Source: Bacillota bacterium (GTDB lineage: Bacteria; Bacillota; Clostridia; Tissierellales; MES13). From it: a DNA stretch of 64,000 nucleotides. Both the position numbers and the translations under genes were made by a program. The notes beneath the pieces are model-generated. The model ran no database searches. It saw only the letters and a list, made by a program, of their open reading frames with translations, and was not told the origin of the DNA. The DNA is taken from the NCBI GenBank assembly GCA_009711765.1, contig VEND01000029.1:4320-68319 (forward strand). Reading direction: 5' to 3'. Position 1 is the first letter of the stretch, and every line of letters begins with the position of its first letter. This document shows, in pieces, positions 43,431 through 62,717 of the stretch.

Positions 43431-43466
43431 TTTTTAGTCTATAAAGACTTAAAGAAGGAGGCAGTT

Positions 43467-45275
43467 ATGGAACATTTAAATAAACAGGATGAGAATATGA
43501 ATATAGTAATAGTAGGTCATGTTGACCATGGAAAAAGTACGATAATAGGTAGACTCTTAGCAGATACAAATTCTTTACCGGAAGGTAAATTAGAACAAGT
43601 TAAAGAAACATGTAGGAGAAATTCTAAACCCTTTGAATATGCATTTTTATTAGATGCTTTAAAGGACGAACAGTCCCAGGGTATAACTATAGATTCAGCT
43701 AGGGTATTTTTTAATACAAAAAAAAGAAATTATATTATAATAGATGCTCCTGGACATATAGAATTTTTAAAGAATATGGTAACTGGAGCATCAAGGGCAG
43801 AATCAGCACTTTTAGTTATAGATGCTAACGAAGGTATAAAAGAAAATTCTAAAAGACATGGATATATGTTATCAATGCTAGGAATAAAGCAAGTATCGGT
43901 TTTAGTAAATAAAATGGATTTGGTTGATTATGATGAAGATACATATAAAAATATAGTAAAGGAATATACTAAATTTTTAGAAAAGATAGATATAAAACCA
44001 GAATCATTCATCCCAGTAAGTGGAATGATGGGAGATGCTGTAGCGAGTCTTTCTGATAATATGCCTTGGTATGAAGGACAAACTGTTTTAGAATCATTAG
44101 ATAATTTTAAGACTAAAAAGGAACCAGAAAATAGACCTTTTAGAATGCCAGTACAGGATGTATATAAATTTACTAAGGATGGAGATAATAGAAGAATTGT
44201 TGCAGGAAATATAGAATCAGGAAAGGTAAGTGTAGGAGATGAAGTAGTATTTTATCCTTCAGGAAAAAGTAGTAAGGTTAAATCTATAGAAGGTTTTAAT
44301 AGGGAAAAAACTGATACTATAGGAGTAGGATATGCTACAGGTTTTACCTTAGAAGAACAGATTTATATAAAAAGAGGAGAATTAGCATCAATATATAACC
44401 AAAAGAAGCCAAAGGTATCATCAAGGATAAAGACTAATCTTTTCTGGCTTGGAAGAAAACCTATGAAAAAGGGAAAAGAATATAAATTTAAAGTAGGTAC
44501 TTCTAAAGTAATAGCAAAAATAGAAGAGATAACAAGGGTTATTGATGCTTCAGATTTAAGTAATGCTAAAAAAGAAAGTATAGATAGACATGATGTAGCT
44601 GAATGTATTTTAACACTAGATAAAGCGATAGCTTTTGATGAAGTAACTGATATAGATAAGACAAGTCGCTTTGTTATAGTTGATGATTATGAAATAGCAG
44701 GTGGAGGAATAATTCAAAAGGCTCTAGAAGATGATTTAAGTGAAGTAAGAGATAAGGTAATGCTTAGAAATTATAAATGGGAAAAAAGTATAATAACAAA
44801 GGAAGAAAGAGCGGAAAAATACAATCAAAAATCTTCACTTATATTAATTACAGGAAAAGAGGATGTAGGTAAAAAACCTTTAGCTAAGACCCTTGAGAAA
44901 AAGTTATTTAATGATGGGAAGATAGTATATTTCTTAGGTATAGGAAACTTATTATATGGAGTGGATGCAGATATTAAAGCAACTTCTAATAATAATAAGG
45001 AAGAACATTTAAGAAGATTAGCAGAAGTTGCAAATATAATACTAGATTCTGGATCAATACTTATAGTAACAGCTGTAGGACTTACAAAGGAAAACTTAGA
45101 TACAATTAAAACTTCAATAGATACAGAAAATATCCAAACAGTATGGGTTGGAGATGAAGTAACTACTAATATACCTGTAGATATACAGATAACAGATACA
45201 AATTCTTTAGAGGCTGAATCAAATAGAATTAAAGGATTATTACAAAAAGAAGGTATCATATTTAAACCATGGTAA
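43467..45275 (+). CDS. cysN: Sulfate adenylyltransferase subunit 1 with degenerate C-terminal APS-kinase-like domain
   Basis: [20 protein letters not shown] and NKMD GTPase motifs; the C-terminal domain has TGKEDVGK and LGIGNL in place of TGLSGSGK and LDGDN. Confidence 0.9.
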
Positions 45276-45291
45276 AGAAAGTGGTGAAAAA

Positions 45292-45888
45292 ATGAAATTT
45301 AATAAAGAGAAAAGTAAAAATATTGTATGGCATGAGGGAAAAATAACATATAGTGATAGATGTCAAAATCTAGGGCAGGAAGGGCTTGTAATTTGGTTTA
45401 CAGGTCTTTCAGGATCTGGCAAATCAACTATTGCAGTAGAAGTAGAAAAAGAACTTATAAAAAAAGGAAAAGCTGTTTATAGGCTAGATGGGGATAATGT
45501 AAGACATGGACTTAATTCAGATTTAGGTTTTTCTAAGGAAGATAGAAATGAAAATATAAGAAGGATAGTAGAAGTAGCAGCACTTTTTAAAGATGCAGGT
45601 TTAATAACATTAGCATCTTTCATATCTCCATATAAAAAAATGAGAAACTTTGCTAGAGAAAAGGTAGGAAAAGAAAACTTTATAGAAGTCTATGTAAAAG
45701 CAGATGTAGAAACATGTTCTAAAAGAGATCCTAAGGGTCTATATGAAAAGGCAAAAAAGGGAGAAATAAAGGATTTTACAGGGATATCATCACCCTATGA
45801 GGAACCTGAAAATCCAGATGTAATTATTGATAGTGATAAACTTTCTATCAAAGAATCAACTAATAAGATATTAGAGGTTATTGACTAA
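45292..45888 (+). CDS. cysC: Adenylyl-sulfate kinase
   Basis: WFTGLSGSGKST, LDGDNVRHGL, RDPKGLY and FTGISSPYE motifs. Confidence 0.96.
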   Translation: MKFNKEKSKNIVWHEGKITYSDRCQNLGQEGLVIWFTGLSGSGKSTIAVEVEKELIKKGKAVYRLDGDNVRHGLNSDLGFSKEDRNENIRRIVEVAALFKDAGLITLASFISPYKKMRNFAREKVGKENFIEVYVKADVETCSKRDPKGLYEKAKKGEIKDFTGISSPYEEPENPDVIIDSDKLSIKESTNKILEVID

Positions 45889-47838: not shown

Positions 47839-48768
47839 TTGGGAATAGATAAAGAAAACAAAAAAAGAGTAGAATATATCCGTATAGCTAGTTACTATTA
47901 CAAATGGGGATTAACACAAAATGAAATTTCTAAGAAAATAAATGTATCTAGACAAAAGGTAAATAGGATGCTTAAAGAATGTGTGAAGTTAGGTATAGTT
48001 AAGTTTGTTATTCCAGAGTTAGAAGATAGTTATGTAAAATTAGAGTCAGAAATAGAAAAAAAATATAATTTAAAAGCTGTTCGTATAGCTAAACATGGTT
48101 GTCAAGAAAATTTGTATTCAGCATTAGGAAGAACAGGAAGTGAGTATCTAATGAAAATATTTAGTGATGGAGATACTATTGGTTTTTCTAGAGGAAGAAG
48201 TGTATCTAACTTAGTAGACTCTATAAATCCTAGAAAAATAAAGGATACTACAGCTGTTCAGTTAATGGGAGGATGGAATAATGAGAATACAAATGGAAAT
48301 TCAGATGAAATTGTCCATCGTTTTAGCGAGAAAGTTAATGCTCGACCAGCGAAGCTTTACGCTCCTGTAGTTGTAGAGTCTAAAATTTTAAAAGAAGCAA
48401 TTTTAAAAGAAGCTTCCTTTTTAAAAGTTTATGATATTATTAAATCCTGTTCTATTTCAGTTGTGGGTATAGGAAATGCTAAATATCCAGAATTAATACC
48501 TACCATGGGAGAGAAGGATTATAGTTATATTAAGGATAAAGCTGTGGGAGAAATATGTACACATTTCTTTGATGAAAATGGCGATTATATAAAAACTCCT
48601 TTTAATGATCGTGTTATATCGGTAGAATATGAAGATTATATGAATATTCCTATAAGAATTGGAGTTGCTGGTTCTTTAGAAAAATTAAAAGCTATTAAAG
48701 GAGCTGTTGCTGGAAAAATCATAAATGTTCTTATTACTGATTTTGAAACAGCAAAACATCTTTTATAA
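47839..48768 (+). CDS. SorC/DeoR(LsrR)-family sugar-phosphate-binding transcriptional regulator
   Basis: YYYKWGLTQNEIS..VSRQKVNRML HTH; GFSRGRS, VVGIG, AVGEIC..FFD and LITD motifs. Confidence 0.92.
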   Translation: MGIDKENKKRVEYIRIASYYYKWGLTQNEISKKINVSRQKVNRMLKECVKLGIVKFVIPELEDSYVKLESEIEKKYNLKAVRIAKHGCQENLYSALGRTGSEYLMKIFSDGDTIGFSRGRSVSNLVDSINPRKIKDTTAVQLMGGWNNENTNGNSDEIVHRFSEKVNARPAKLYAPVVVESKILKEAILKEASFLKVYDIIKSCSISVVGIGNAKYPELIPTMGEKDYSYIKDKAVGEICTHFFDENGDYIKTPFNDRVISVEYEDYMNIPIRIGVAGSLEKLKAIKGAVAGKIINVLITDFETAKHLL

Positions 48769-48770
48769 AA

Positions 48771-48818
48771 GCACCCTATAGATAGATTTTTTTAACATCT
48801 ATCTATAGGGTGTTTTTA
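48771..48818 (+). terminator. Intrinsic terminator after regulator
   Basis: GCACCCTATAGATAGAT/ATCTATCTATAGGGTGT followed by TTTT. Confidence 0.8.
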
Positions 48819-48895
48819 TGTTTAAGTATTTAATATAAAAATTTTAAAAATTTTAAAAATTTTAATATCATAAACTTGTCATATTTTTATACCAT

Positions 48896-48931
48896 AGTTA
48901 CATATGTATAGTAGTAGTTACAAATGTAACT
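48896..48931. promoter_or_regulatory. Candidate tandem operator for the SorC-family regulator
   Basis: Palindrome AGTTACA-AA-TGTAACT (48916-48931) and imperfect copy AGTTACATATGTATAG (48896-48911) just upstream of the aldolase RBS. Confidence 0.55.
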
Positions 48932-48966
48932 TAAGAATTAATAATGAATATTATAGGAGGGGAAAA

Positions 48967-49767
48967 ATGGTGGGTAGGAAAAATAGAATGAATCATATTT
49001 TTAAAAGGGACAATAAGACTTTTATTTTAGCAATGGACCATGGAGCAAATTTTAATGTTTTACCCCAGCTAAAAAAACAGGGGAAAATGATTAGAGAGTT
49101 AGCAAAAGCAGGAGCGGATGCATTTTTAGCAACACCTGGAATGGTAGATAAGTTTGGGGATGATTTTTTAGGTAAAGGAATTATTCTTAGAGTGGAAGGA
49201 GGAGTTTCATTTCTAGGAGACCGTTCTAAGCCTATGCAAATTGTTGTAAATGCTGAAGATGCATTAAGACTTGGGGCAGATTCTATTATTACTATGTCTT
49301 TTCCAGGGTCTAAGTTTGAAAATGAAATATTAAGTCAATTATCAAGAACAATCATGAAAGCCCATAAATGGAATCTACCAGTTACAGCTGAAGCATTACC
49401 TAGAGGATTTGAAGGAGGTAGTGATGCTAGAACACCAGAGAACATTACTTTTGCTTGTAGACAAAGTGTAGAGTTAGGAGCAGATATTGTTAAAACAATA
49501 TATACAGGGGATAAAGAAAGTTTTAAAGAGCTAACAGATAGTGTTTATGCACCTGTTGTAATTTTAGGTGGATCGAAAAAAGTAGCTGAACGTCAACTGT
49601 TACAAGAAATTAAAGATGCAATTAATTCAGGGGGAAAAGGTGTAGCTATGGGAAGAAATATATGGGGACATGAAAAGCCTGTTAAATATGCATCTTCAAT
49701 TTCTAGAATTATCCATGAAGATTGTAGCGTTGAAGCAGCTTTAAAAGAATTTAATACTTTGTATTAA
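48967..49767 (+). CDS. Class I (Schiff-base) aldolase, DhnA/FbaB/LsrF-like
   Basis: AMDHG, ELGADIVKT (catalytic Lys), VILGG and GVAMGRNIW motifs; AGGAGG RBS favours the start at 48967. Confidence 0.88.
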   Translation: MVGRKNRMNHIFKRDNKTFILAMDHGANFNVLPQLKKQGKMIRELAKAGADAFLATPGMVDKFGDDFLGKGIILRVEGGVSFLGDRSKPMQIVVNAEDALRLGADSIITMSFPGSKFENEILSQLSRTIMKAHKWNLPVTAEALPRGFEGGSDARTPENITFACRQSVELGADIVKTIYTGDKESFKELTDSVYAPVVILGGSKKVAERQLLQEIKDAINSGGKGVAMGRNIWGHEKPVKYASSISRIIHEDCSVEAALKEFNTLY

Positions 49768-49789
49768 GTAAAGATATGGGGGAGTTTAT

Positions 49790-50827
49790 ATGGAAAAATA
49801 TAAAGTAAGTGTAATCACTGATGAAAATAAAGTGAAATATTATGAGCTTGATAAAAAGGAGCCAGTAGATAATGAAGTTTTAGTAAAGGTTCATTCTAGT
49901 GCAATTTGTACATTAGAACAAAGAGTATTTAAAGGAATAAAACCAATATATCCCTTTGCAGGAGGACATGAAGTTTCTGGGATAGTTGAAAAAATAGGTA
50001 GTAAAGTTAAAAGTGTTAGTAAGGGGGATAAAGTTGTAATTAGAACCCTTAATACCTGTGGAGAATGTGAGTTTTGTAGAAGTGGACATGAAAATCTATG
50101 TAGGGTTTCATATCAGTCATCAACCCATTCAGAGTTTAAAGGCCCGGGTGGTTTATCTGAATATATGACAGTAGATGCAGCTAAAGTATATAAACTAGAT
50201 CAAGATGTAAATTTAAGTTTTGCATCATTAACAGAGCCACTAGCTTGCTGCATTCATAGTATAAAGAAAGCTAATATAGATTTTGGAGATAATGTTGTGG
50301 TTATGGGTGTTGGAATTATGGGGCTTTTCCATATTCAACTTGCAAAGCTTAGAGGTGCAAAGGTAATTGCTTGTGACATTAATGAAGAAAGGTTAGAGAT
50401 TGCATCAAATTTAGGTGCTGATATAACTATAAATTCAAGTGATAATAAACTACTTATAAAAAAGATAAATGAAATAACAAAGGGTAGAGGTGTTGATGTA
50501 TCAATTTGTACTGTTCCTTCTACTTTGGTTGCTGCTGATTGTGTAAGTATAACAGGAAAATTAGGAAGGGTTGTAATGTATACATCATTCTATCCAGACA
50601 ACCCAATCGATACTAGTCCAAATAAGATACATTCTACAGAGAAAACAATAACAGGAGCAGTTAGTCCAACTAATAAAGATTTTTTAATTGCAACAAAACT
50701 TATTTCAAATAATGTAATAGATATGGAAAATGTTATAACTGATATAATTCCAATGACAAATTTAAAAAAAGCTTTTGAAAAGGCACTAAAACCAAGCTCA
50801 TATAGAATACTTATAGATTTTTCTTAA
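49790..50827 (+). CDS. Zn-dependent MDR polyol/alcohol dehydrogenase
   Basis: IC..GHE, structural-Zn CGECEFC..C, EPLAC and GVGIMG motifs. Confidence 0.9.
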   Translation: MEKYKVSVITDENKVKYYELDKKEPVDNEVLVKVHSSAICTLEQRVFKGIKPIYPFAGGHEVSGIVEKIGSKVKSVSKGDKVVIRTLNTCGECEFCRSGHENLCRVSYQSSTHSEFKGPGGLSEYMTVDAAKVYKLDQDVNLSFASLTEPLACCIHSIKKANIDFGDNVVVMGVGIMGLFHIQLAKLRGAKVIACDINEERLEIASNLGADITINSSDNKLLIKKINEITKGRGVDVSICTVPSTLVAADCVSITGKLGRVVMYTSFYPDNPIDTSPNKIHSTEKTITGAVSPTNKDFLIATKLISNNVIDMENVITDIIPMTNLKKAFEKALKPSSYRILIDFS

Positions 50828-50889
50828 GACTAAAGTATAGATTAAAAGCGTAGTTTACACTTTAGAAAGGTTTAAAAAGGAGGGTTAAC

Positions 50890-52260
50890 ATGGCAAATTC
50901 ATCTAAAGATTCTACGACACAAGGAGGAACGTTAAATTTACTTAGTTGTGTAACAATTATTGTAGGTGGTATGGTAGGTAGTGCTATTTTTTCTCTTTCA
51001 GGATTGACAATGTATTATGCTGGACCAGCATCAGTTATTTCATGGATCATCGCTGGAATTATTTTATTAATGTATGGTTTACAAGTTGCTGAACTTGCTA
51101 CAATCTTTCCAAAGTCAGGTGGAGTATTTGTTTTTCCATCAAAGTCTCTTGGTAAAACAGAACTACAAGGTAAAATTTGGGGTTGGTTTTCAGCATGGGG
51201 TTATATTACAGCTAATATTGCTGGAATAGCTTTTTCAGCTATTTATGTTTCCATGTATCTAGGGGTAGGATTCCCTATATTTTCTAATTTACAGGTTCCA
51301 TTAGCTGTTGGAGCGGTTATTGTATGTGGAATTTTAAATTTTTATAGAATTTCTGTAGCAGGTAAAGCAAATACAATTTTATTAACTATCTTAGTTTTAA
51401 CTATGTTAGTATTTGTTGCAGTAGGTTTATTCGGTGGAAAGTGGGACTTAAGTTTAATTACTCCGTTTTTTACTCAAGGAGCATTAGGAGCTTCAGGATT
51501 TGTTAGTGCAATACCTAATGCTATGGTTGCATATGGCTCAATAGTAGCTATTGCTTTCATGGTATCTGAAGTTAAAAATCCAAATAAAAATGTACCTAAA
51601 TCAGCTATGATAGCTATGGGGATTGTTGGATTACTTTATGCGATAGTTATAATTACAACGACAGGATTAGTTTCTGCAAAGTTTTTAATAGAAAATCCAG
51701 GTATGAGGTTTATACCATTATATGCTGCAGCATTTACTAAGTTATCTATGTATCCATGGCTACCTAAAGTTATATCTATATCAGCTGTGATGGCTCTTTT
51801 AACTACTATATTAGTATTAATTGCAATTACTTCTAGAGCTATCGAAGCTACAGCTTTAGGAGGATTTTTACCTAAGTCTTTAGGGAAAAAACATAAAAAA
51901 ACTAAAGCTCCATTAAATGCTACTATCGTTGTAGTTGTTATTAGTTCTATTATCTCTTTATTTCCTCAATTAACTGAGCAGATTGTTAACTTAGGTTCTT
52001 TATTTGCTGCTATTACTATTGTTATAAATTGTATATCCCTATTAGTAGCACGAAGAAAGTATGAGTATATAGAAGGTAATTATCGTGCTCCAGGAGGGTC
52101 TGTTATACCAGTAATAACATTAGTTGTTATTGTTTTATCATATGTGCCTAGAATATTAGATGGTTCAGAAGTGATTTTATTTACAATTATTTGGTATGCT
52201 GTGGCAGGGATATTATTACTTTTTACTAAGGAGAAAGTAAAAAAGACAGTGGAAAATTAA
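50890..52260 (+). CDS. APC family permease
   Basis: GGMVGSAIF, AELATIFPKSGG and SEVKNPNKNVP motifs; about 12 TMs. Confidence 0.88.
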   Translation: MANSSKDSTTQGGTLNLLSCVTIIVGGMVGSAIFSLSGLTMYYAGPASVISWIIAGIILLMYGLQVAELATIFPKSGGVFVFPSKSLGKTELQGKIWGWFSAWGYITANIAGIAFSAIYVSMYLGVGFPIFSNLQVPLAVGAVIVCGILNFYRISVAGKANTILLTILVLTMLVFVAVGLFGGKWDLSLITPFFTQGALGASGFVSAIPNAMVAYGSIVAIAFMVSEVKNPNKNVPKSAMIAMGIVGLLYAIVIITTTGLVSAKFLIENPGMRFIPLYAAAFTKLSMYPWLPKVISISAVMALLTTILVLIAITSRAIEATALGGFLPKSLGKKHKKTKAPLNATIVVVVISSIISLFPQLTEQIVNLGSLFAAITIVINCISLLVARRKYEYIEGNYRAPGGSVIPVITLVVIVLSYVPRILDGSEVILFTIIWYAVAGILLLFTKEKVKKTVEN

Positions 52261-52368
52261 AATTAAATTTTAGTATATAAATCCTTATTAGAAGAAATAA
52301 GTAAGAGGGTAAATTACCCTCTTACTTTAAAATTAGTTTTCAATGGGGGAGTTAGGGGGTTTATAAAG

Positions 52369-53271
52369 GTGGAAGTTAAGAAATTAGAGGAATTTAAAGT
52401 TAAAAATAATTGTGTTTTATTTGGAAAGTTTGATGGGCTACATAGGGGGCATCGAAGTGCAATTGATTTATTAAAACAAGAAGAGCATGAAGGTTTAAAT
52501 TCAGTTATGCTTTATGTAGAAACTGATGATATTGAAAGAATATATACGAAAGAAGAAAAACAAACTATTTTAGAGAAAATTAATCCAATGTATTATGTTG
52601 ATGCTTCTCGATTTAATTTAAAAAATATGGAGGCTCAACAATTTATTGAAGAAATCCTTATAGATAAATTAGATGCAAAAAAAATAATAATTGGAGAAAG
52701 TTATAGATTCGGAAAAGATAGAAAAGGAAGTATTGATACATTAAAGAAATTATCTAAAAAGTTAGGGTTTGAAATAATTGAATGTAAAACAAAGACTTAT
52801 GATAATAAACCTATTACAAGCGAAAGAATTAAAGATGAGATAAGATCTGGAAATATTTTAGATGTAAATGAAATGCTAGGGGAACCATATTTTATTATAG
52901 GTGAAGTTTTACATGGGAAAGCATTAGGAAGGACAGTGGGTATGCCTACTGCTAATTTAAGCATACCTAAAGAAAAAATAGAACCTAAGCATGGAGTATA
53001 TGCTACATTAACTAAGATTGATAATAAAACCTATAAGGGATTAACTAATATTGGACTTAGACCTTCTGTAGATAATTATAATTATACGACTGTTGAAACA
53101 TTTTTATTAGATTTTTCTAAAGATATCTATGGAGAAAAGATAAAGATTGAAATTCATGATTACATAAGAGGAGTAGTTAAGTTTAATAATTTAAGTGAGG
53201 TAAAGGCGCAAGTAGAAAAAGATATAGAAAGAATAGAGAACTGTTTTAAAAGGGGAATTGTTTATGGGTAA
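52369..53271 (+). CDS. ribF: RibF-like riboflavin kinase / FMN adenylyltransferase (kinase domain intact, adenylyltransferase domain eroded)
   Basis: GKFDGLHRGH, RFGKDRKG, ITSERI, GRTVGMPTAN, NIGLRPS, VETFLLDF and DIYGE motifs; the usual TFxPHP segment is absent. Confidence 0.85.
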   Translation: MEVKKLEEFKVKNNCVLFGKFDGLHRGHRSAIDLLKQEEHEGLNSVMLYVETDDIERIYTKEEKQTILEKINPMYYVDASRFNLKNMEAQQFIEEILIDKLDAKKIIIGESYRFGKDRKGSIDTLKKLSKKLGFEIIECKTKTYDNKPITSERIKDEIRSGNILDVNEMLGEPYFIIGEVLHGKALGRTVGMPTANLSIPKEKIEPKHGVYATLTKIDNKTYKGLTNIGLRPSVDNYNYTTVETFLLDFSKDIYGEKIKIEIHDYIRGVVKFNNLSEVKAQVEKDIERIENCFKRGIVYG

Positions 53272-54598
53272 ACTAAAGGCAGTTTATTATATAAATCAGT
53301 TTTATGCTGGAATAGGTGGTGAAGAAAAGGCTGATATCGGTCTTATGACATTTGATGAAAAAAAAGGACCGGCTATAGGTATAGAAAGATTTTGGCAGGG
53401 TGAAATGGAGATTGTAAAAGTAATTAGTTGTGGTGATAACTTTATAAATAATGAAGACAAATTTAAAAGTATTTTACCTAAGATAAAAAAGATACTAAAA
53501 AAGGTTAATCCAGACGTGTTTATTGCAGGGCCAGCTTTTAATGCTGGAAGATATGGAGTTGCTTGTGCTAAGTTATGTGATTATGTAAAAAGAGAATTAG
53601 GAATTGAAAGTGTAACGTCTATGTATTATGAAAATCCAGCTGTAAAGATGTATGTAAAAAATAATTATATAGTAGAAAGTGCTGAAACATCTAGAGGGAT
53701 GAAAAAGGTGTTACCAATTCTTTCGAACCTATCATTAAAATTAGCAAAGAAAGAGAATATTGGCCCTGCGAGATTAGAAGGGTATCTACCCACAGGATAT
53801 AGATATAATGAGTATCATGATAAAACTGGGGCTAAAAGAACAGTGGAGATATTACTTAAGAAATTAAATAACGAAAACTATAAAACAGAAGTTCCTTTAA
53901 GAGGTTTAGAAAAGGTTTCTCCTTCTAAACCTTTTAAGGATATTGAAAATGCCAAAGTAGCTTTAATTACTACTGGTGGATTAGTACCTAAGGGAAATCC
54001 AGATAAATTAAAACAGGCTTTTTCAGTTACCTATGGTAAATATAATATTGGTAATCTTGATTCTATAAAAAAGGATGAATACGAATCAATTCATGGAGGA
54101 TATGATACTACCATTGTAAATCAAGATCCTAATAGATTAGTTCCCTTAGATGAGTTGAGGAATTTAGAAAAAGAAGGGAAAATTAGAGAAATACATGGAA
54201 AGTTTTTTACTACATGTGGAATTGGTACAAACGTCGAAAATAGCAAACAGATAGGAAGAAAAATTGTTAAAGATTTAGAAAAAGAAAATGTAGATATTGC
54301 TATACTTACTTCAACCTGAGGCACTTGTACTCGTTGCGTTGCAACGATTTCAAAAGAATTAGATAAAGAAAATATACCGAATGCTGTAATTACAGCCTTT
54401 ACATCCATAGCTTACAATGTTGGAACTAATAGGATAATATATGGAGGGAATTTCACTAACCCTGCAGGAAACCCAAACTTACCTCTTGATAGAGAAAAAT
54501 ATTATAGAAGGAATATACTATTAAAAGCTTTAGAGGCGATAGCTACTAAAATAACTGAGCCAACAATCTTTAAAGTTGATGAGAGTAAGGAGGTTTAA
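53264..54598 (+). CDS. Glycine/sarcosine/betaine reductase selenoprotein B family protein (444 aa, Sec at TGA 54317-54319)
   Basis: YINQFYAGIGGEEKA, GPAFNAGRYG, HGGYD and DPNR motifs, then LTST-TGA-GTCTRC; the frame stays open for 92 more GrdB-like codons (NRI..GNP.L..E...R..L.KALEA) to TAA at 54596-54598. Confidence 0.92.
54331..54347 (+). promoter_or_regulatory. Bacterial SECIS-like hairpin
   Basis: TCGTTGC-GTT-GCAACGA stem-loop starting 12 nt after the in-frame TGA, at the position of clostridial grdB SECIS elements. Confidence 0.7.
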
Positions 54599-54600
54599 GT

Positions 54601-55911
54601 ATGAAATTAAAAAGGCAATATTTTGATGTAAAGGATGTAGTTTGGGATAGTAAGTTAGAATATAAAGATGAAGTTCTATATTTAAATAAGGAAGAAATCT
54701 TAAAGAAAATTAGACCTTTAATGAAAAATGTAACAAATGTAGACTTAGAAATAGTTAAACCTGGTGAAGATGCAAGGATTATTCATGTATTAGATACTAT
54801 TCAACCAATGGTTAAAATAGAGGGAAGTGGAAAACAATATTCAGGATTTTTTAGTCATCCTAAAACTATAGGTGAAGGAATAACAAATGTATTAAGAGGC
54901 TTTAGTATTATGGAAAGTGCTCCGCTACCTTGGGATGATGGTAGCGCTAGCAGTGGTCTATTATATCCAAGGGATGCAATTATAGATATGACTGGACCAA
55001 TTAAAGGATTTACACCCTTTTCAGAGACTATAAATTTAGTAATAACTTATGAATTAGTTGATGGAAAGTCTTCTGAGGAGTATGACAATGATATAAGACT
55101 TTGTGGACTAAAGATATCTGAGATATTAGCAAAACTTACAGTTAAAAATACTCCAAATGAAGAAGAAACCTTTTCTATAGATGAGATTAATCCTGATTTA
55201 CCGAATGTAGTATTAGTATGGCAATGTCAAAATCAAGGAGTTTATTCAAATACATATTTGTATGGTCATAGTATAGATAATTTAGTTCCAACACTATTAC
55301 ATCCTAATGAAATGTTAGATGGTTGTATAGTAAGTGGTAATTATGTATGGCCTGCATTTAAGGTTCCAACATATTTACATGTGAACCATCCTATTTTATT
55401 AGAATTATATAAACAACATGGAAAGACTATTAACTTTAAGGGAGTGATATTTAGTAGAAGTCACAATCCTACAAATTGGCATAAAGAAAGATCTGCTAAC
55501 TTCTGTGTAAAAATATCTAAATACTTAGATGCAGATGGTTTGATAATGGCTTGGGAAGGAGGAGGAAATGCCGCAGTAGATGGCATGTTAACTATACAAC
55601 AAGCAGAGAATATAGGTATAAAAACATCTACTATAACTTTTGAATTTGGAGGAAAAGATGGAACAGAAGGTGTATTATTAGTTGATGATGTAGCTGAAGC
55701 AGATGCTGTAATTAGTGGAGGCAGTATTGAAAAGACTTATGAGTTACCTAATGTAAAAAGAGTAATTGGTGGTAAGTATTTAAGATTAAATAAGGAATCT
55801 GGAGGATATTTCCCACCTTCAAATAAGAGTATTACATTTGATACAACTACTCAATTTTACTGTTCAGGAAATCAGTCTGGACATAGTAAGTTATTTGGAG
55901 AATCATATTAG
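54601..55911 (+). CDS. Glycine/sarcosine/betaine reductase component B proprotein-family subunit (GrdE/GrdG/GrdI-like)
   Basis: KPGEDARI..D.I.P, IIDMTGP..TPFS, PTLLHPNEMLDG.IVSGN, EGGGN and ADAVISGG motifs. Confidence 0.88.
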   Translation: MKLKRQYFDVKDVVWDSKLEYKDEVLYLNKEEILKKIRPLMKNVTNVDLEIVKPGEDARIIHVLDTIQPMVKIEGSGKQYSGFFSHPKTIGEGITNVLRGFSIMESAPLPWDDGSASSGLLYPRDAIIDMTGPIKGFTPFSETINLVITYELVDGKSSEEYDNDIRLCGLKISEILAKLTVKNTPNEEETFSIDEINPDLPNVVLVWQCQNQGVYSNTYLYGHSIDNLVPTLLHPNEMLDGCIVSGNYVWPAFKVPTYLHVNHPILLELYKQHGKTINFKGVIFSRSHNPTNWHKERSANFCVKISKYLDADGLIMAWEGGGNAAVDGMLTIQQAENIGIKTSTITFEFGGKDGTEGVLLVDDVAEADAVISGGSIEKTYELPNVKRVIGGKYLRLNKESGGYFPPSNKSITFDTTTQFYCSGNQSGHSKLFGESY

Positions 55912-55942
55912 GTTTTAGTTAGTTTTAATAAGGGGGAGAGCT

Positions 55943-57439
55943 ATGATAGATCCTTATAAGTATGTTAATAACAAACCTTATAAACTTTATATTAATGGAG
56001 AATTTATAACACCTAAATCAGGGAAAACTATGGATGTTATAAATCCAGTTAATAATAAGAGTTTTGCAAGGGTATATAAAGGTGGAGAAAAAGAAGTAAA
56101 AAAAGCAATAAAAGCAGCAAGAAAAGCTTATGACAATGGACCTTGGGGGAAAATGACTAATCTACAAAGAAGTAAGTTACTTTTAAAGTTTAGAGATAAG
56201 TTATCAGAAAGGCGAGAAGAACTTGCATGTCTTGAAGCTTTAGATTGTGGAAAACTTTATACAAGTACATTTTACTATGAACTTCCTCAAAGTATAGATG
56301 CATTTGAATACTATGCAGGGAAAGCTAGATGTCTAGAAGGGAAAGTAGTACCTGTGGATGGTGGTGGGAATTATCTTAACTATGTAACATGGAATCCTTG
56401 TGGAGTAGTAGCAGAAATTCTTCCATGGAATGGTCCATTAATGATGGGGTGTCAAAAGATTTCAGCTATATTAGCGGCTGGTAATACTGTAATTGTAAAG
56501 CCTTCATCTTGGGCTTCATTAAGTTTATTGGCACTAGCATCTATATTTGATGAAGTAGGATTTCCACCTGGAGTAGTTAATATAATAACAGGTTCTGGAT
56601 CTTTAGTTGGAGATATGCTTGTAAAGAGTAAAAATGTAGATATGGTATCTTTAACTGGTGGAACTGAGACTGGAAAGAAAATAATAGAATCATCTGCTAA
56701 AAGCGTAAAGAATATAGCTTTAGAACTTGGTGGAAAAAGTCCAAATATTATATTTGAAGATGTCAATTTAGAAAATGCTTGTAAATGGGCATTGTTTGGA
56801 TTTACTTTAAATTCAGGGCAAGTATGTGTATCAGGTACTAGAATAATAGTTCAAGAATCTATATATGATGATTTTATAATTCAATTAAATAAACTTTGTA
56901 AAAATTTCAAATTAGGTGACGGATTTGATTATGAAAAAGGAGTAAATTTTGGCCCGTTAATTTCTAAAGAACATTGTAATACTGTATTGAATTATATTGA
57001 AAAAGGAATAAGTGAAGGAGCTAGACTTGTAACTGGAGGGAAAAAACTTGAAGGGGAACTTTCTAATGGGAATTTTATATCTCCAACAATCTTTGCTGAT
57101 GTAACTTCTCATATGACAATTTTTCAAGAAGAAATATTTGGTCCAGTTGTATGTATATCTAAATTTAAAACTGAAGAAGAAGCAATTAAGTTAGCTAATG
57201 GAGTAAATTATGGATTGGCAGGTGCAGTATTTACAAATAATATTAAGCGTGGACACAGAGTAGCTGAAAAAATAAAAGCCGGTCAAGTGTATATAAACAC
57301 ATATTTTAGTAAAGGAATGGTTGAATCAGCAGGAACAGGATGGAAACAAAGTGGATTAGGAGTTGCTGGTATTCATAAATATATGCACTCTAAAACAACT
57401 TTTGTTGAATTAGATGATAATGTTAACCCACCACTGTAA
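55943..57439 (+). CDS. NAD(P)-dependent aldehyde dehydrogenase (betaine-aldehyde-DH-like)
   Basis: PWN, KPS, TGGTETG, LELGGKSP, SGQVC and EEIFGPV motifs. Confidence 0.93.
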   Translation: MIDPYKYVNNKPYKLYINGEFITPKSGKTMDVINPVNNKSFARVYKGGEKEVKKAIKAARKAYDNGPWGKMTNLQRSKLLLKFRDKLSERREELACLEALDCGKLYTSTFYYELPQSIDAFEYYAGKARCLEGKVVPVDGGGNYLNYVTWNPCGVVAEILPWNGPLMMGCQKISAILAAGNTVIVKPSSWASLSLLALASIFDEVGFPPGVVNIITGSGSLVGDMLVKSKNVDMVSLTGGTETGKKIIESSAKSVKNIALELGGKSPNIIFEDVNLENACKWALFGFTLNSGQVCVSGTRIIVQESIYDDFIIQLNKLCKNFKLGDGFDYEKGVNFGPLISKEHCNTVLNYIEKGISEGARLVTGGKKLEGELSNGNFISPTIFADVTSHMTIFQEEIFGPVVCISKFKTEEEAIKLANGVNYGLAGAVFTNNIKRGHRVAEKIKAGQVYINTYFSKGMVESAGTGWKQSGLGVAGIHKYMHSKTTFVELDDNVNPPL

Positions 57440-57494: not shown

Positions 57495-57529
57495 CAATAG
57501 CAGTCATCTTTTAGATGACTGCTATTTTC
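57495..57529 (+). terminator. Intrinsic terminator ending the aldolase-ALDH operon
   Basis: AATAGCAGTCATCT-TTT-AGATGACTGCTATT followed by TT. Confidence 0.8.
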
Positions 57530-58182: not shown

Positions 58183-58884
58183 TTAGTTCAAGTATTCCTT
58201 ATATAGATTGGTCATTTGAGTTATAAATTTTCCCCATTCAGGGTTTGTTTTCTTTTCAAAATTTGTTATATAGTATTGGTACTTATAAAGCATTCTAAGT
58301 GATTTTTTATCACCAAGGTCTTTTGCACAGAGATAGTAGATGAGCTCATACATCTTAATAGCTTGAACATTGTCAAGGCCTGTGGACCACTCTGCAGCTT
58401 TCTCTATTAGCTGTATTGCATTGTTATCATGAGCAGCAAAGTATAAAAGATTCTTAACTGCAATGTATGATAGTGATTTTACTTCACCACGGTCATCTTT
58501 ATTATCAATCATTGGTTCGTAGTTAGTATGTGGATATATCTTTGCTTCAATTGAATTACGAAGACCTTTTTCAATAGCTGTTAGAGAAGAATCTTTATGG
58601 ATAATAATAGCAGGGGGATTCTTCTCTAACAAATCCTCAATATATTCCTGAATTGATGAAAGGATCAGTTCTTCATAAACCGCCTCATGTATAGCGAGCT
58701 TGGGAAAAGTTGAAAAAATAGGGTCAAGCCACACTTTCTTAAAGAGGGGAAAATCAAAACTTCTCTTAGTATATCTGCTGCGGTCTGGGGGAATCAAAAA
58801 GTTTGCATCCAGAGTAATGATTTGAGTAGGGTCCTTAAATATACTAATTAGGGAAGGATTTTGGGTGTTAATGTTAATTTTCAT
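58183..58884 (-). CDS. PIN-like domain protein (putative RNase toxin)
   Basis: ITLDANFLI, IHEAVYEEL, DRGEVKSL and AAHDNNA give the acidic PIN active-site pattern; AGGAGGGG RBS favours the start at 58884. Confidence 0.65.
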   Translation of the reverse strand: MKININTQNPSLISIFKDPTQIITLDANFLIPPDRSRYTKRSFDFPLFKKVWLDPIFSTFPKLAIHEAVYEELILSSIQEYIEDLLEKNPPAIIIHKDSSLTAIEKGLRNSIEAKIYPHTNYEPMIDNKDDRGEVKSLSYIAVKNLLYFAAHDNNAIQLIEKAAEWSTGLDNVQAIKMYELIYYLCAKDLGDKKSLRMLYKYQYYITNFEKKTNPEWGKFITQMTNLYKEYLN

Positions 58885-59758
58885 TATTCCCCTCCTCGTT
58901 AAAGAAGGCATCTAGTTCATCAATATCTTCATCAGATACGGTGATTTCATAACCGAATTCATCCGGTGTTTTGTTGAAGAGACTTAATGTGTCAGCAAAC
59001 TTGTCTTCATCAATCAGGTTATCTTCGAAGTTTCGGATGATGATTTCAATATCATTGGGAGAAGTACCGATGGTGTTGGTTGCTTTATTTAATTTTATGA
59101 AGACTTCGTTATTAATTGCGCGACCGATCTTACCATATGCACCATCTAAATTTCTTTCATTAATGGCATACAATTTTTTATATTGTTCTTTAGAAATAGC
59201 CTTAATTTCACTAAGTCTTTTGACGATGGAGCGATAAGGAATCAACCACGTACATTGAAGTCTAGCTATAAATCGTAAAAGAGTTTTTATAGAAACTTCC
59301 AATAGAGATGAAGTCTTGAATTCCTCAAGAATGATACCTTCTAATGCAACTTCTGGTAGTAAGAACTCAGCTGCAAACCGATTTGCTTTTGCTTCAATAA
59401 TATTATTTTCTTCATCTTCCAATCGACTTAGATGGGATCCGGTTTTTGTGTAATAATGATATAGCTCATGTGCAATGGCAAAAACCTGCTTATCAAAGTA
59501 ATCAGCTGTGTTTAAACCAATAAATACTAGTTCTCTGTTACCTTCCTCAGAATATATAATTGCAGCAGAAAAAGCTGGTTTACCATCTTCAGATTTAATA
59601 GGATATTCTAATAACATAATGTCTAACTGATCAAGGATTGTAAAAATGTCATTTGCAATAGGAGTTTCACCGATAAAACCTAGAGATTGGCGCCGATCTC
59701 TGGCAAGCTTACGGATTTCCTCTATCTGAACTTCATTAAGCTTTATTCGTTGATTCAT
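58874..59758 (-). CDS. ImmA/IrrE family Zn metallopeptidase (DUF955)
   Basis: FAIAHELYH (HExxH) and EAKANRFAAEFLLP motifs. Confidence 0.9.
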   Translation of the reverse strand: MNQRIKLNEVQIEEIRKLARDRRQSLGFIGETPIANDIFTILDQLDIMLLEYPIKSEDGKPAFSAAIIYSEEGNRELVFIGLNTADYFDKQVFAIAHELYHYYTKTGSHLSRLEDEENNIIEAKANRFAAEFLLPEVALEGIILEEFKTSSLLEVSIKTLLRFIARLQCTWLIPYRSIVKRLSEIKAISKEQYKKLYAINERNLDGAYGKIGRAINNEVFIKLNKATNTIGTSPNDIEIIIRNFEDNLIDEDKFADTLSLFNKTPDEFGYEITVSDEDIDELDAFFNEEGNNEN

Positions 59759-60101
59759 TTTCGAATTTCTCCCTTAATAGGATTTGTTGTCTTAATGACA
59801 GCATCATTTTAAAGAGCTTATCTACGCCTTTTTTTTCATTTTCGCTCAATGCTTCGCTGCGAAGTGCAATAAACGAATTCTTTTTTTCTTTTTCTATAAA
59901 CATATTTGTAATATCAAATCCAAGTATATCGGCTAATGCTTCAAATTGCGCGATGGAAGGAGTAAAATCCTCTCGCTCAATACGACCAATCATAATTCTA
60001 TTAATACCAGTTAATTTTCCTAATTCTTCCTTTGTATATCCTTTTTCTTCTCTTAATTTTGTAACTGTTGTAGCTAGTTTTTTAGAAGATAAAATTTTCA
60101 T
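59736..60101 (-). CDS. XRE-family helix-turn-helix regulator
   Basis: LREEKGYTKEELGKLTGINRIMIGRIE..PS HTH_3; AAAGGAGG RBS favours the start at 60101. Confidence 0.88.
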   Translation of the reverse strand: MKILSSKKLATTVTKLREEKGYTKEELGKLTGINRIMIGRIEREDFTPSIAQFEALADILGFDITNMFIEKEKKNSFIALRSEALSENEKKGVDKLFKMMLSLRQQILLREKFENESTNKA

Positions 60102-60146
60102 AATTGGGCCTCCTTTCACTAATATAGTATGCCCATATCTAATTAT

Positions 60147-60175
60147 ATGATACTTAAAATAACAAACTTTGTCAA
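60147..60175 (-). promoter_or_regulatory. SigmaA promoter of the XRE-ImmA-PIN operon
   Basis: Minus strand TTGACA-17 bp-TATCAT. Confidence 0.65.
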
Positions 60176-60309
60176 TGTTGCAGTTAAAAAATGATGTTTG
60201 AAATTAATATTAACATAAATCTTTAAATGTATCAAAAGGAAGAATTATAGTTTCATTAATATAAATTTTTTGCTACAAATTCAAAAAGTATTCCTAATAG
60301 CAAATTCAT

Positions 60310-60525
60310 AAGTATATGCACTTTAAGACATCGAAGAATATGAGAAGAGTAAAGCAACAATTAAACTTTTATCAAAATTACTAGAAGCTGAAAGAACTAT
60401 CAAAACAGGAAAAGATTGGATTACTGAAGATCAAGCGAAAGAAGACTTGGGTATATGGTCTTATCGTAATTAAGGATTAATCCAATTGCAAGATACGATT
60501 TAATAAGGATATGAAAGATATAGAA
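60310..60525 (+). pseudogene. Remnant Phd/YefM antitoxin C-terminus plus start of a RelE/ParE toxin
   Basis: KYAL*DIEEYEKSKATIKLLSKLLEAERTIKTGKDWITEDQAKEDLG, followed by LRINPIARYDL. Confidence 0.55.
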
Positions 60526-60530
60526 ATTCT

Positions 60531-60647
60531 CAGTTTAGTATTTTAGATATATTGCCTAAAACTTCAGTGTCTGAAGATGTAATATAATTAGAAAATACTA
60601 TGAAGAAAAAGCTTGGTTCAAAGGTTTTTGAATTAAATATGAATTAG
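60531..60647 (+). pseudogene. C-terminal remnant of a GIY-YIG nuclease family protein
   Basis: QFSILDILPKT..EDVI*LENTMKKKLGSKVFELNMN matches the FQxSILE..E..WK.KL.SR..GLN.N tail. Confidence 0.55.
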
Positions 60648-60892
60648 AATTTATTAAATTAACTAATAGATGAATCTAGTAAAAAATATAGAGAAGGGAT
60701 AACTTATGATAAGAAAGGTGTAAAAGATTTAATTAGCAAATTAGGAGTTGGGAGTGTTATAGAAACAGTTTATTATATTAACTGACTGCCGTAATGAAGC
60801 ATATTATTTAGACAATATAATACTTTGAATTTATAAATTTAGAAGGGATTTACTGTAAATTATATAATATATACATATATGGAAATTAATAC

Positions 60893-62080
60893 ATGGAGAT
60901 GATAATAGTGAGTGATATATATGAGGTAAAGTTATTAGAAAATTTTATATATGATAATGAAGAATTAGAAAAACTTGAATTATTAACAAATGATTTTAAT
61001 ATCTTTACAGCATTAAACATCATTAATGACGAATTGAAACACTCTAATTTTCTTGCTTGGTTGCTATCGCCGAGGGAAACACATAATTTAGGAGATTATT
61101 TTCTAAAATCATTAATAAAGACAACTATATATAAAATTTCTAAATATAATAATTATACTATTCCTTCTATATTTGATATTGATAGCTGGAGTTTTGATGA
61201 TGCCGAAGTATTAAGAGAATGGAGAAATATTGATATAGTAATAAGAAGTGATGAAAATAACTTTGTATGTATAATAGAAAATAAAGTCCTATCAAAAGAG
61301 CATAGTACTCAATCAAGAAGATATAAGAATATAATTGATAGAGAATTTATGGATTATAAATATAAAGTATTCACTTTTTTGACTATTGATGGGGAAGAGG
61401 CTTCGGAAGAAGAGTATATATCTTTAAGCTATGAAGAGATTGTAAATATTATTGAAAAAATAACTACGAGTAATAAAGATAAATTAGGACAAGAAATAAT
61501 TATATTTTTAAGCCACTACACAGAAATGGTAAGGAGGTATATTATGAGAGAGGCAGAAATCCAGAATATATGTGAAAGGATTTATAAGACACATAAGAAA
61601 GCTCTTGATCTTATATATGAGTATAAGCCTGATAATCAGTTAGAAATTTCTGAAGTTTTAATTGATATTATAAAAAATGATAGTGATTTAATTTTAGATG
61701 ATTCTAATAAGAAATATATAAGGTTTTTACCAAGTGACCTTGATTTTATTGAACATGAAGGAGAAGGATGGACAAAGTCTAAAAGGATACTGTTATTTGA
61801 GTTTAGGAATAGGCCTTCTTCATTAAATCTTTATCTTATGATTGGTCCTGGTAATCAAGATGTAAGAGAAAGGTTATATAATACTGCTCGAAAATCAGAT
61901 TTTAAATTTACAAGGGAAAATAAAAATTTATCAAAAACATGGTTTGCATTACATAAAAGACGTAGTATGAAAATAGATGAAGATAATTATAATATAGAAG
62001 AAATTAAAGATAGACTTATTAAATATTTTAATAAATTTAAAAATAATGAAATGAAAAATATTATAATTGCATTTAAATAG
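60893..62080 (+). CDS. PD-(D/E)XK nuclease family protein (PDDEXK_4-like)
   Basis: ELKHSNFLAWLLSP..H.LGDYFL, REWRNIDI and IIENK motifs. Confidence 0.8.
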   Translation: MEMIIVSDIYEVKLLENFIYDNEELEKLELLTNDFNIFTALNIINDELKHSNFLAWLLSPRETHNLGDYFLKSLIKTTIYKISKYNNYTIPSIFDIDSWSFDDAEVLREWRNIDIVIRSDENNFVCIIENKVLSKEHSTQSRRYKNIIDREFMDYKYKVFTFLTIDGEEASEEEYISLSYEEIVNIIEKITTSNKDKLGQEIIIFLSHYTEMVRRYIMREAEIQNICERIYKTHKKALDLIYEYKPDNQLEISEVLIDIIKNDSDLILDDSNKKYIRFLPSDLDFIEHEGEGWTKSKRILLFEFRNRPSSLNLYLMIGPGNQDVRERLYNTARKSDFKFTRENKNLSKTWFALHKRRSMKIDEDNYNIEEIKDRLIKYFNKFKNNEMKNIIIAFK

Positions 62081-62717
62081 ATAGATTAAATTTAAAATAT
62101 AGACAATATTTTTCTAGATAATGATTGTTTAACTTATATTTGAGCCTAACAAAAGGCAACTAACCGCTAATTCTTTACAAATACATTCTATATAAATTAA
62201 ATTTATTAAAGAGTTATATCAAAATGGGTTAAACGTTTTATTATTTGATGATGAATTTACTATAGCTTGTTTAAAAGAGATGTTTAATATTACTAATGAC
62301 AAAGCTAATTTGTTATTAGGATAAGCAATTAAGGAAATTAATAAATCTAAAAGTACAATTCGAAAAATAGTAGATAGCATGGATAAATCCTACTAAAGAA
62401 GAATTAGTTGATCGATTAATTAATGAAAAAGAGTTTAGAATAATATATTAAAAGAAATTATAACTAATATATTAAGTCTTGATTTTAAATCAATGGTTTT
62501 TATTTATGGGATTAAAAAGAAAGAGTCTCTTAAATTAGATGATATTATTATTAATGGAATAAAAGAAAATTTATTAGCTGATGGAGCTAATAATAAATTA
62601 GTAAATAAATTGTAATTTATTACCTTTAGAACTACTAGTAGCTCAGCACTTAAATATTCTTATGATATAATATATTAAAATAAACAATATAATCTATTTA
62701 AAGGGGAGTCTTTATTT

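Follow-up and report, generated by a model that had tools for sequence, protein, structure and literature searches.

A fin-type operon with a selenocysteine-encoding reductase gene in a Tissierellales-like bacterium and its probable role in anaerobic riboflavin side-chain degradation

A candidate gene cluster for anaerobic riboflavin breakdown was assigned only in 2026, and within Lachnospiraceae alone. Its finA-K neighbourhood is induced by riboflavin in Clostridium scindens, which makes lumichrome anaerobically (Quiles-Perez et al., bioRxiv 10.64898/2026.02.13.705874; J Bacteriol 2026, PMC13492142), and finBCD is suggested to release a triose, after which finHI would cleave off a C2 unit (PMC13492142). 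The published text describes C. scindens as a riboflavin auxotroph, names Muricomes intestini as having a C. scindens-like fin neighbourhood, and gives F. fissicatena, for which a hydroxyethylflavin product was reported in 1970, a shorter cluster without finG, finH and finI (PMC13492142); the comparative survey of fin took in 792 Lachnospiraceae genomes (bioRxiv 10.64898/2026.02.13.705874). Here we set beside this cluster an operon at positions 47839-57439 (+ strand) of a 64,000-nt stretch of DNA from a Bacillota bacterium (GenBank assembly GCA_009711765.1, contig VEND01000029.1); the whole stretch is called the window, and all coordinates are its own. The operon is a member of the fin kind, already published in 2026, in an uncultured, Tissierellales-like clostridial anaerobe. 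On balance we consider it probable that it degrades the riboflavin side chain by the mechanism set out below, with a selenium enzyme making the second cut and lumichrome left over.

Our literature search for selenium dependence or explicit chemistry of riboflavin breakdown returned nothing besides the published fin report, the text of which makes no mention of selenium, dihydroxyacetone phosphate (DHAP) or carboxymethylflavin (PMC13492142). An earlier note on this DNA, written from the letters alone, had pointed to riboflavin-induced neighbourhoods of aldolase, oxidoreductase and riboflavin kinase genes in lumichrome-making gut clostridia, and these match fin of C. scindens. The note had also supposed that coupling to an aldehyde dehydrogenase (ALDH) and a selenoreductase was new, a supposition that did not hold, since finG and finHI are already in the published cluster (PMC13492142).

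Gene content of the operon

Open reading frame (ORF) lists and profile searches place eight genes, all co-oriented on the + strand, at 47839-57439, and every gene of the run proposed by the earlier note (SorC regulator, aldolase, Zn dehydrogenase, APC permease, RibF-like, selenocysteine (Sec) GrdB-like, GrdE-like and ALDH) was recovered where it had placed them. The features are as follows.

47839-48768, + strand: SorC/DeoR-type regulator, helix-turn-helix plus sugar-phosphate-binding domain (PF04198, 206 bits)
48766-48818, + strand: terminator hairpin after the regulator gene, 22-bp stem and T-run (dG -30.1 kcal/mol, z -9.08)
48904-49767, + strand: DhnA-type class I aldolase, FinC-like, of the DeoC/LacD family (PF01791, 111.5 bits)
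49790-50827, + strand: Zn-dependent polyol(-phosphate) dehydrogenase of the medium-chain dehydrogenase/reductase (MDR) type, FinD-like, with ADH_N and ADH_zinc_N domains
50890-52260, + strand: APC-superfamily permease, FinA/F-like, of the type called APC-1 here (PF13520, 141.9 bits)
52299-52327, + strand: internal hairpin in the gap between the permease gene and ribF (dG -19.2, z -4.76), a possible attenuator or transcript boundary
52369-53271, + strand: full-length bifunctional RibF (FAD_syn and Flavokinase domains), FinB-like, a diverged second copy
53258-54598, + strand: GrdB-family selenoprotein, FinH-like, 446 residues (PF07355, 455 bits; TIGR01918, 472 bits)
54320-54357, + strand: SECIS_4 bacterial selenocysteine insertion element (Rfam RF01990) directly 3' of the UGA (41.7 bits, gathering threshold 38)
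54601-55911, + strand: GrdE-family subunit, FinI-like (PF09338, 445.6 bits; below all NCBIfam cut-offs)
55943-57439, + strand: NAD(P)-dependent aldehyde dehydrogenase, FinG-like (PF00171, 542.7 bits)
57496-57526, + strand: terminator hairpin after the ALDH gene, followed by TTTTC (dG -19.5, z -6.03)

The operon is syntenic with the fin locus of Muricomes intestini (L045), to which its proteins are 65% (aldolase), 57% (dehydrogenase), 55% (permease), 39% (RibF), 62% (ALDH), 65% (FinH) and 67% (FinI) identical. The functional reading of the earlier note, a riboflavin side-chain catabolic operon of kinase, dehydrogenase, aldolase, ALDH and selenium-dependent C-N cleavage, gains support from this synteny with riboflavin-linked fin loci, from the extra RibF and from GrdA, GrdC and GrdD encoded elsewhere in the genome. 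The host assembly, 93.65% complete, spans 180 contigs with a total of 3.83 Mb. Its polynucleotide phosphorylase (PNPase) is at most 78-80% identical to any other, with Caloranaerobacter and Thermohalobacter at 78-79%; the best named relatives are these two, Sporosalibacterium, Anaerosalibacter and Gottschalkia, which suggests a host lineage that is Tissierellales-like and not Lachnospiraceae.

The RibF encoded in the window scores 229.7 bits against TIGR00083, above the cut-off of 184.35, and keeps GxFDGxHxGH, YRFGKD and GMPTANL, with both motif sets aligned to the FAD synthetase of T. maritima (1mrz); we take these motifs to carry their known functional meaning. A separate, higher-scoring housekeeping ribF stands on another contig of the host (C13) in a truB-ribF-pnp context, so that the window gene is an extra copy, and the two proteins are 36% identical. 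The earlier note had held that its reading would fall if this were the only ribF of the host and the gene were absent from homologous operons; a housekeeping ribF is there, and the paralogue occurs in at least 31 of 63 related loci. In a RibF tree one branch (99 SH-aLRT, the Shimodaira-Hasegawa-like approximate likelihood ratio test) splits the fin-linked RibFs, including the window's, from six housekeeping RibFs, three of the 34 rows labelled fin (L019, L048 and L057) being antisense-ORF artefacts to be ignored. Isolates with the full cluster have two RibF matches each, one adjoining the reductase genes. Among 31 fin RibFs the mean pairwise identity is 61% in the flavokinase module and 39% in the FMN adenylyltransferase (FMNAT) module; GMPTANL and the neighbouring kinase motifs are at least 90% conserved, and in four of the ten fin rows displayed the xRFGxx block is lost to a deletion of 7 residues. 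The better conserved flavokinase module suggests that selection acts chiefly on the kinase of fin RibFs. Such kinase-focused selection would fit a pathway that needs a 5'-phosphate, and would speak mildly against FinB working mainly as an FAD pyrophosphorylase.

The gene of the GrdB-family protein has a single in-frame TGA (54317-54319, codon 354), read through as TST-U-GTCTRC, i.e. U-x-x-C-x-x-C. A SECIS_4 element stands at the equivalent place in all six orthologous loci tested and also in canonical grdB. Selenocysteine is encoded in 75 of the 79 loci with a GrdB-like gene; the other four genes are truncated or frameshifted, and none has Cys. The FinH-like protein falls below the equivalog or exception cut-offs of the glycine (445.6 vs 602.2), sarcosine (465.3 vs 800) and betaine (408.6 vs 775) models. 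The betaine GrdH model gives the lowest of these three scores, and the host's own GrdB reaches 598.6 on it. The match to PrdB covers residues 227-407 only, at 96.7 bits. FinI scores 284.9 against GrdG (cut-off 780) and 135 against FarE (cut-off 675). Identity to the host's own canonical subunits is 44% for FinH with GrdB and 34% for FinI with GrdE, and no solved structure in the PDB matched FinH or FinI.

At the self-cleavage site FinI reads SGN-Y-VWP-A against SGN-C-VSA-C of canonical GrdE, and both pyruvoyl-forming cysteines are missing. SGNYVWP is common to 73 of 79 rows of the fin-type and spirochaete groups, and the first pyruvoyl position is Cys in none of the 79; only the canonical GrdE row has Cys there. 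GrdI and FarE also lack both cysteines and are not proproteins (PMC10838667). The missing cysteines group FinI with reductases whose leaving group needs no imine. They fit N10 of the isoalloxazine, a fully substituted ring nitrogen at which no Schiff base could form, and would make substrates that are primary or secondary amines, for example those derived from Amadori compounds, less likely. FinI is probably the substrate-binding partner of the selenoprotein.

The best model for the ALDH is that of betaine aldehyde dehydrogenase (BADH, TIGR01804) at 506.5 bits, under the cut-off of 668.6. An ALDH orthologue is found in 53 of the 63 related loci; three others (L018 from Alkaliphilus peptidifermentans, L029 and L056) have instead a ferredoxin and a tungsten-type aldehyde:ferredoxin oxidoreductase (AOR), and seven have neither, five of these being cut by contig ends. 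The non-orthologous swap indicates that the aldehyde-to-acid step is kept.

The regulator scores 214.7 bits against NF053881, not reaching the cut-off of 420; its orthologue adjoins the aldolase and dehydrogenase genes in 24 related loci, and this SorC/DeoR-type protein is probably the operon repressor. The aldolase is nearest to the models for ADH synthase, archaeal fructose-bisphosphate (FBP) aldolase and LsrF but below every NCBIfam equivalog cut-off. Of the structures in the PDB, MJ0400 (2qjg) matches it best, at 159 bits, and the GADIVKT.YTGD block lines up, such that GADIVKTIYTGD of the window aldolase lies over GADIVKTSYTGD of MJ0400; the lysine of this block is presumably the catalytic Schiff-base lysine. 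The aldolase is 83% identical to that of Alkaliphilus. For the dehydrogenase the nearest models are IolM, threonine dehydrogenase and galactitol-1-phosphate dehydrogenase, each below its cut-off; the nearest solved structures are polyol dehydrogenases, the closest PDB entry being L-iditol 2-dehydrogenase, and identity across class-I-type fin loci is 49-62%. Permease orthologues (45-74% identity) sit between the dehydrogenase gene and ribF in full loci, and a second type of APC permease, 34-43% identical to the window's, accompanies reductase genes elsewhere.

Terminators had been claimed before the aldolase gene and after the ALDH gene. A simple consensus terminator scan missed both; reading the sequence and folding it confirmed real hairpins with T-runs at the two places, and none of 200 shuffles of 48766-48818 folds equally well. 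The further hairpin at 52299-52327 means that the run may comprise two transcripts. An Rfam search of the window for an FMN or other riboswitch found nothing besides the SECIS element and, far upstream, a c-di-GMP-I riboswitch, which leaves flavin sensing by RNA unsupported. Two gene starts may need adjusting: ATG 53264 is possible in place of TTG 53258 for the GrdB-like gene, and for the aldolase a start some 21 codons downstream of 48904 is possible, as alignments to relatives begin at residues 17-23.

Around the operon, the upstream flank (41658-45888, +) encodes a CitMHS-type transporter and sulfate activation (a CysN-like GTPase/APS kinase fusion and an APS kinase), the downstream flank (58183-63236) an ImmA/IrrE-XRE pair on the minus strand, a PD-(D/E)XK nuclease and a DUF6036 nucleotidyltransferase, and the spacer at 46-48 kb is 21% GC. 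The flanking genes and this spacer suggest that the operon borders on a region that is mobile or variable. Farther away, the c-di-GMP-I-GGC aptamer occupies 4939-5018 (+; 70.1 bits), just upstream of an ORF at 5134-7137, and a very long ORF (23606-28489, +; 1627 aa) lies inside a long co-oriented gene run.

Shared reductase machinery and modularity of related loci

The operon has no grdA, grdC or grdD of its own. Looking for these genes in the genome, as the earlier note proposed, we found all three on one contig (C19) together with trxA and trxB, in a canonical operon ordered trxB-trxA-grdE-grdA(Sec)-grdB(Sec)-grdC-grdD, with a tandem glycine riboswitch upstream (L006:13278-13462, - strand). 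Since the canonical operon has its own glycine riboswitch, the window pair is not the glycine reductase. GrdA was found in 53 of 56 genomes with the pair (the host, all five isolates and 47 of 50 further genomes, a set that left out eight fin-clade loci: L008, L040, L051, L053, L055, L058, L064 and L069); the three misses are metagenome-assembled genomes (MAGs), and the full-length GrdA matches have one in-frame TGA each. GrdC adjoins the pair in 12 of 63 loci, and two loci from Christensenellaceae (L014 and L060) have trxB, trx, grdA, grdC, grdD, selA and selB directly after the full fin set, with tRNA-Sec as well in L014.

At 69% identity or above, the relatives of the GrdE-like protein fill more than 120 database clusters, and an alignment of 14 was used to retrieve 80 loci, onto which the window's eight proteins were mapped; all ORFs of the loci were clustered and recurrent clusters annotated. 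Sixty-three loci form one clade with the window (62 tree rows, 100 SH-aLRT), apart from a spirochaete group and far from the host's GrdE. The earlier note had called for a neighbourhood search for co-occurrence of a ribF-like gene, aldolase and grdB/grdE, and these, with the Zn dehydrogenase, are found together in at least 31 of the 63, in three gene orders. Another ten loci have long flanks and no upper genes, and 22 are too short to judge. Hosts of the full set are spread over Lachnospiraceae, Oscillospiraceae, Christensenellaceae, Lutisporaceae, Natronincolaceae, Clostridiaceae and Treponema putidum, with Lutispora and Alkaliphilus among the genera besides Muricomes intestini. The fin-type cluster is thus widespread but rare, with 63 loci whose hosts represent seven or more named families and include environmental MAGs as well as an oral treponeme. 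Of the 399 genomes in a class-level sample, 47 have a GrdE-like gene of any kind and two a Fin-type E subunit (at least 55% identity), namely the host and one other at 71%. The system is thus rare, its distribution is sporadic, and selenoprotein A nearly always goes with it. With two positives, class-wide co-occurrence statistics were given up and the genomes behind the loci were used instead.

Loci with and without upper genes are interleaved in the GrdE-like tree, whose starred branches force at least eight changes. The lower-only loci usually add an XRE-cupin regulator and the second APC permease type, often with an iron-dependent alcohol dehydrogenase (Fe-ADH). The window operon itself looks mosaic in origin, to judge by protein identities: its upper genes are nearest the Alkaliphilus type (the permease at 74%), and its B-E-ALDH part is nearest L008 (82-85%).

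Several loci are worth recording in their own right. Treponema putidum ATCC 700334 (L059) has a complete Firmicute-type set (ALDH, XRE-cupin regulator, B, E, aldolase, Zn dehydrogenase, permease and RibF), with GrdA and a second, weak RibF-like match elsewhere in its genome; this cluster looks like horizontal transfer. The spirochaete group (L072-L087, e.g. L083:1-21308), a sister group, holds Sec-GrdB/GrdE-like pairs, 45-51% identical to the window's, without pyruvoyl cysteines and without ALDH. Their neighbours are GntR, hydantoinase A/B, opine-dehydrogenase-like and carbamoyltransferase-like proteins, trxB/grdA/trx/grdC, ferredoxin with AOR, and a molybdenum enzyme resembling xanthine dehydrogenase; these pairs are probably a separate substrate class of selenoprotein-B reductase and were set aside. 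In L012, L013, L021, L066 and L086 an amidohydrolase and a three-subunit molybdenum enzyme of the xanthine dehydrogenase family (MoCoBD, FAD-binding and 2Fe-2S) lie directly upstream of ALDH and the pair, neighbours that could serve alloxazine ring attack or purine fermentation. The lower-only isolate Bariatricus massiliensis (G002, L035) has eleven GrdB-family matches, an unusually large set.

A proposed pathway and its rivals

The scheme we propose would begin with import of riboflavin by the APC permease and, as the first enzymatic step, phosphorylation at C5' by the RibF paralogue to flavin mononucleotide (FMN). The Zn dehydrogenase would oxidise the ribityl C4'-OH of FMN to 4'-keto-FMN, with a DHAP-like CHOH-C(=O)-CH2OP end, which the DhnA-type aldolase could cut at C2'-C3' into DHAP and 10-formylmethylflavin. 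ALDH, or AOR where it takes its place, would oxidise the latter to 10-carboxymethylflavin, an N-carboxymethyl compound like betaine; reduction instead would give hydroxyethylflavin, the F. fissicatena product. The Sec-containing GrdB-like/GrdE-like pair is predicted to move the carboxymethyl group from N10 to selenoprotein A, releasing lumichrome, and GrdC/D with thioredoxin and thioredoxin reductase, encoded elsewhere, would turn the Se-carboxymethyl ether into acetyl-phosphate. What the SorC regulator senses is probably one of the phosphorylated intermediates. The scheme would account for every conserved gene, the ALDH/AOR swap, both published products and the missing pyruvoyl site. It is more explicit than what is in print, is strengthened by the comparative data given here, and is the best available explanation.

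A more far-reaching version is tentative, and we hold it less likely to be right than wrong. FinHI would be a further class of selenoprotein B, a 10-carboxymethylflavin reductase for which the C1'-C2' stub is a Stickland-type acceptor, going to acetyl-phosphate and ATP via GrdA/C/D, with C3'-C5' entering glycolysis as DHAP. The system would be modular: upper-only organisms of the F. fissicatena type would excrete hydroxyethyl- or formylmethylflavin, and lower-only organisms (e.g. Bariatricus massiliensis, with Fe-ADH, ALDH, the second APC permease and FinHI) would finish the job. A selenium-dependent last step tied to the glycine reductase machinery predicts an ATP gain and selenium control of lumichrome formation, and modularity offers an explanation for the differing flavin catabolites in animals (hydroxyethylflavin, formylmethylflavin and lumichrome). 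Lumichrome and related catabolites are reported to be MR1 ligands that dampen the activation of MAIT cells, the invariant T cells associated with mucosa (PMC12650265). If the modular version is true, selenium-dependent cross-feeding on flavin catabolites would set the level of this MR1/MAIT-cell ligand in anoxic habitats.

A number of points weigh against riboflavin degradation as the role of the operon. Every chemical step is one that we infer from gene content, and the riboflavin link of this organism rests on orthology, which in turn rests on Muricomes intestini and synteny, none of the 80 retained loci being that of C. scindens; the trees come from quick runs of IQ-TREE, and their branch support is SH-aLRT alone. 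The host has ribE, the riboflavin synthase gene, and so probably makes riboflavin, which puts the purpose of degrading it in question, and the permease belongs to an amino-acid/organocation family and not to any known riboflavin transporter family. The closest FinI relatives (L008-L010, 78-83%) have no RibF nearby, and L009 adjoins a mannose-family phosphotransferase system (PTS), SorC, a Zn dehydrogenase and a class II aldolase. The main open weakness is the lower-only loci. Some carry only ALDH and the B/E pair; Bariatricus massiliensis has one RibF and no FinC-type aldolase; and of nine genomes searched behind loci without upper genes, seven, all MAGs, lack a FinC-type aldolase (five with no match, two with only distant ones of at most 36%), the other two having one (62-63%) on another contig. 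In the positive control for this search the aldolase was found in eight of eight full-cluster genomes. The lower-only set of Fe-ADH, BADH-like ALDH and APC permease also looks like a choline-to-betaine-type route. It is possible that such loci take up hydroxyethyl-, formylmethyl- or carboxymethylflavin from other organisms or from photolysis; it is also possible that the lower module serves another amino alcohol or aldehyde.

The alternative that survives best keeps the chemistry and changes the role, to flavin overflow or damage control: endogenous reduced FMN or FAD would be disposed of, the RibF paralogue running in reverse as an FAD(H2) pyrophosphorylase, while the products would leave through the permease. 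We regard this as unlikely, albeit with a real minority claim. It is the role favoured in the published discussion (PMC13492142), and both the host's ribE, hence probably its own riboflavin, and the N-terminal GxFDGxHxGH retained by the window RibF would suit it. Yet the FMNAT half of fin RibFs is poorly conserved and in several carries a deletion, whereas conservation of the kinase half is tight; catabolic operons induced by their substrate typically have a dedicated permease and a repressor of the sugar-phosphate type; and coupling to GrdA/C/D would yield acetyl-phosphate, which looks like energy conservation rather than disposal.

The same logic might also be applied to another N-ribityl or N-polyol substrate, such as ribityl-lumazine, 5-deazaflavin FO, roseoflavin or an Amadori/glycated amine, with riboflavin a side substrate. 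Here the permease type and the mere 36% identity of the RibF paralogue to the housekeeping enzyme count in its favour, as does the PTS neighbourhood of L009 and L010, the nearest FinI relatives, mannose-family PTSs being known to take up some Amadori compounds. We nevertheless give this a low probability: conservation of the flavokinase motifs is strong, the published cluster is responsive to riboflavin and yields flavin-derived products (PMC13492142), and FinI lacks the pyruvoyl cysteines to be expected if the product were a primary or secondary amine (for instance glycine, or an N-alkylglycine derived from an Amadori compound). L009:1-8600 and L097, which share one contig (G406:C39), hold a reductase pair at 78%, Enzyme I, mannose/sorbose PTS IIA-IID, SorC, Zn dehydrogenase, class II aldolase, a TIM-barrel isomerase and an ABC transporter. 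The L009/L010 neighbourhood may be an ordinary sorbose-type cluster, or may be an analogue of the upper module with PTS in place of permease and kinase and a class II in place of the class I aldolase.

Improbable, in our estimate, is a chance neighbourhood of two unrelated units, one for sugar phosphates (SorC, aldolase, Zn dehydrogenase and permease) and one resembling betaine reductase, in which the BADH-like ALDH and the non-pyruvoyl GrdHI-like pair would convert a choline- or betaine aldehyde-type amino alcohol or aldehyde to an amine and acetyl-phosphate. The lower-only loci, with Fe-ADH, ALDH, APC permease and B/E, resemble GbsB/GbsA plus betaine reductase, BADH is the best model for the ALDH, and FinI lacks the pyruvoyl cysteines as GrdI does. 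Against this, the two parts are linked in at least 31 of 63 loci of several families in three gene orders, the RibF paralogue is placed between both, FinH scores lowest of the three models on betaine GrdH, and the F. fissicatena variant and its hydroxyethylflavin are explained by the joint pathway only. Finally, a D-proline reductase-like FinHI, cleaving N10-C directly by thiol or selenol with release of acetate, or acting on the aldehyde or alcohol, with neither selenoprotein A nor acetyl-phosphate involved, might draw on the window's lack of grdA/C/D and the three of 50 genomes with the pair but no GrdA, but is very improbable given GrdA in 53 of 56 genomes (the misses being MAGs), grdA/C/D directly beside the pair in 12 loci, and a FinH that is GrdB-like over its full length with only a partial PrdB match.

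Comparison with known systems

The nearest described system is fin of C. scindens, which comprises the same families: the RibF paralogue finB, class I aldolase finC, alcohol dehydrogenase finD, permease finA/F, ALDH finG and Grd pair finHI. The window operon differs from it in having the ALDH gene after the reductase genes and not before, in its single permease, and in a host that has ribE and stands outside Lachnospiraceae.

With betaine reductase GrdHI and fluoroacetate reductase FarEB the window pair shares a selenoprotein B with U-x-x-C-x-x-C and a GrdE-family partner without pyruvoyl cysteines, together with reliance on common GrdA, GrdC/D and thioredoxin and a leaving group that needs no Schiff base. 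Unlike these it falls below the GrdH (408.6 vs 775) and FarE (135 vs 675) cut-offs, forms its own clade, and has RibF, aldolase and ALDH as neighbours rather than betaine or fluoroacetate genes. The host's own glycine reductase GrdE/GrdB has in common with it the two protein families and the Sec codon and SECIS_4 element of the B subunit; unlike the window pair it keeps the pyruvoyl cysteines, is preceded by a tandem glycine riboswitch and comes with trxB-trxA-grdA-grdC-grdD of its own, at identities of 34% (E) and 44% (B).

The aerobic riboflavin lyase/monooxygenase RcaE of Microbacterium maritypicum and Devosia riboflavina has the same end product, lumichrome; this route is described as O2-dependent and as taking the ribityl chain off in one step as ribose (PMC13492142). 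In contrast, the route proposed for the window would be anoxic, would proceed via phosphorylated intermediates and would need two cuts, first of a C3 and then of a C2 unit. The window aldolase shares its fold family with the known DhnA aldolases, namely archaeal FBP aldolase, ADH synthase MJ0400 and LsrF. All three handle a C(=O)-CH2-OP end. The window enzyme differs from them in belonging to a fin-specific group (62-83% identity among class-I-type loci), whose proposed substrate would be 4'-keto-FMN.

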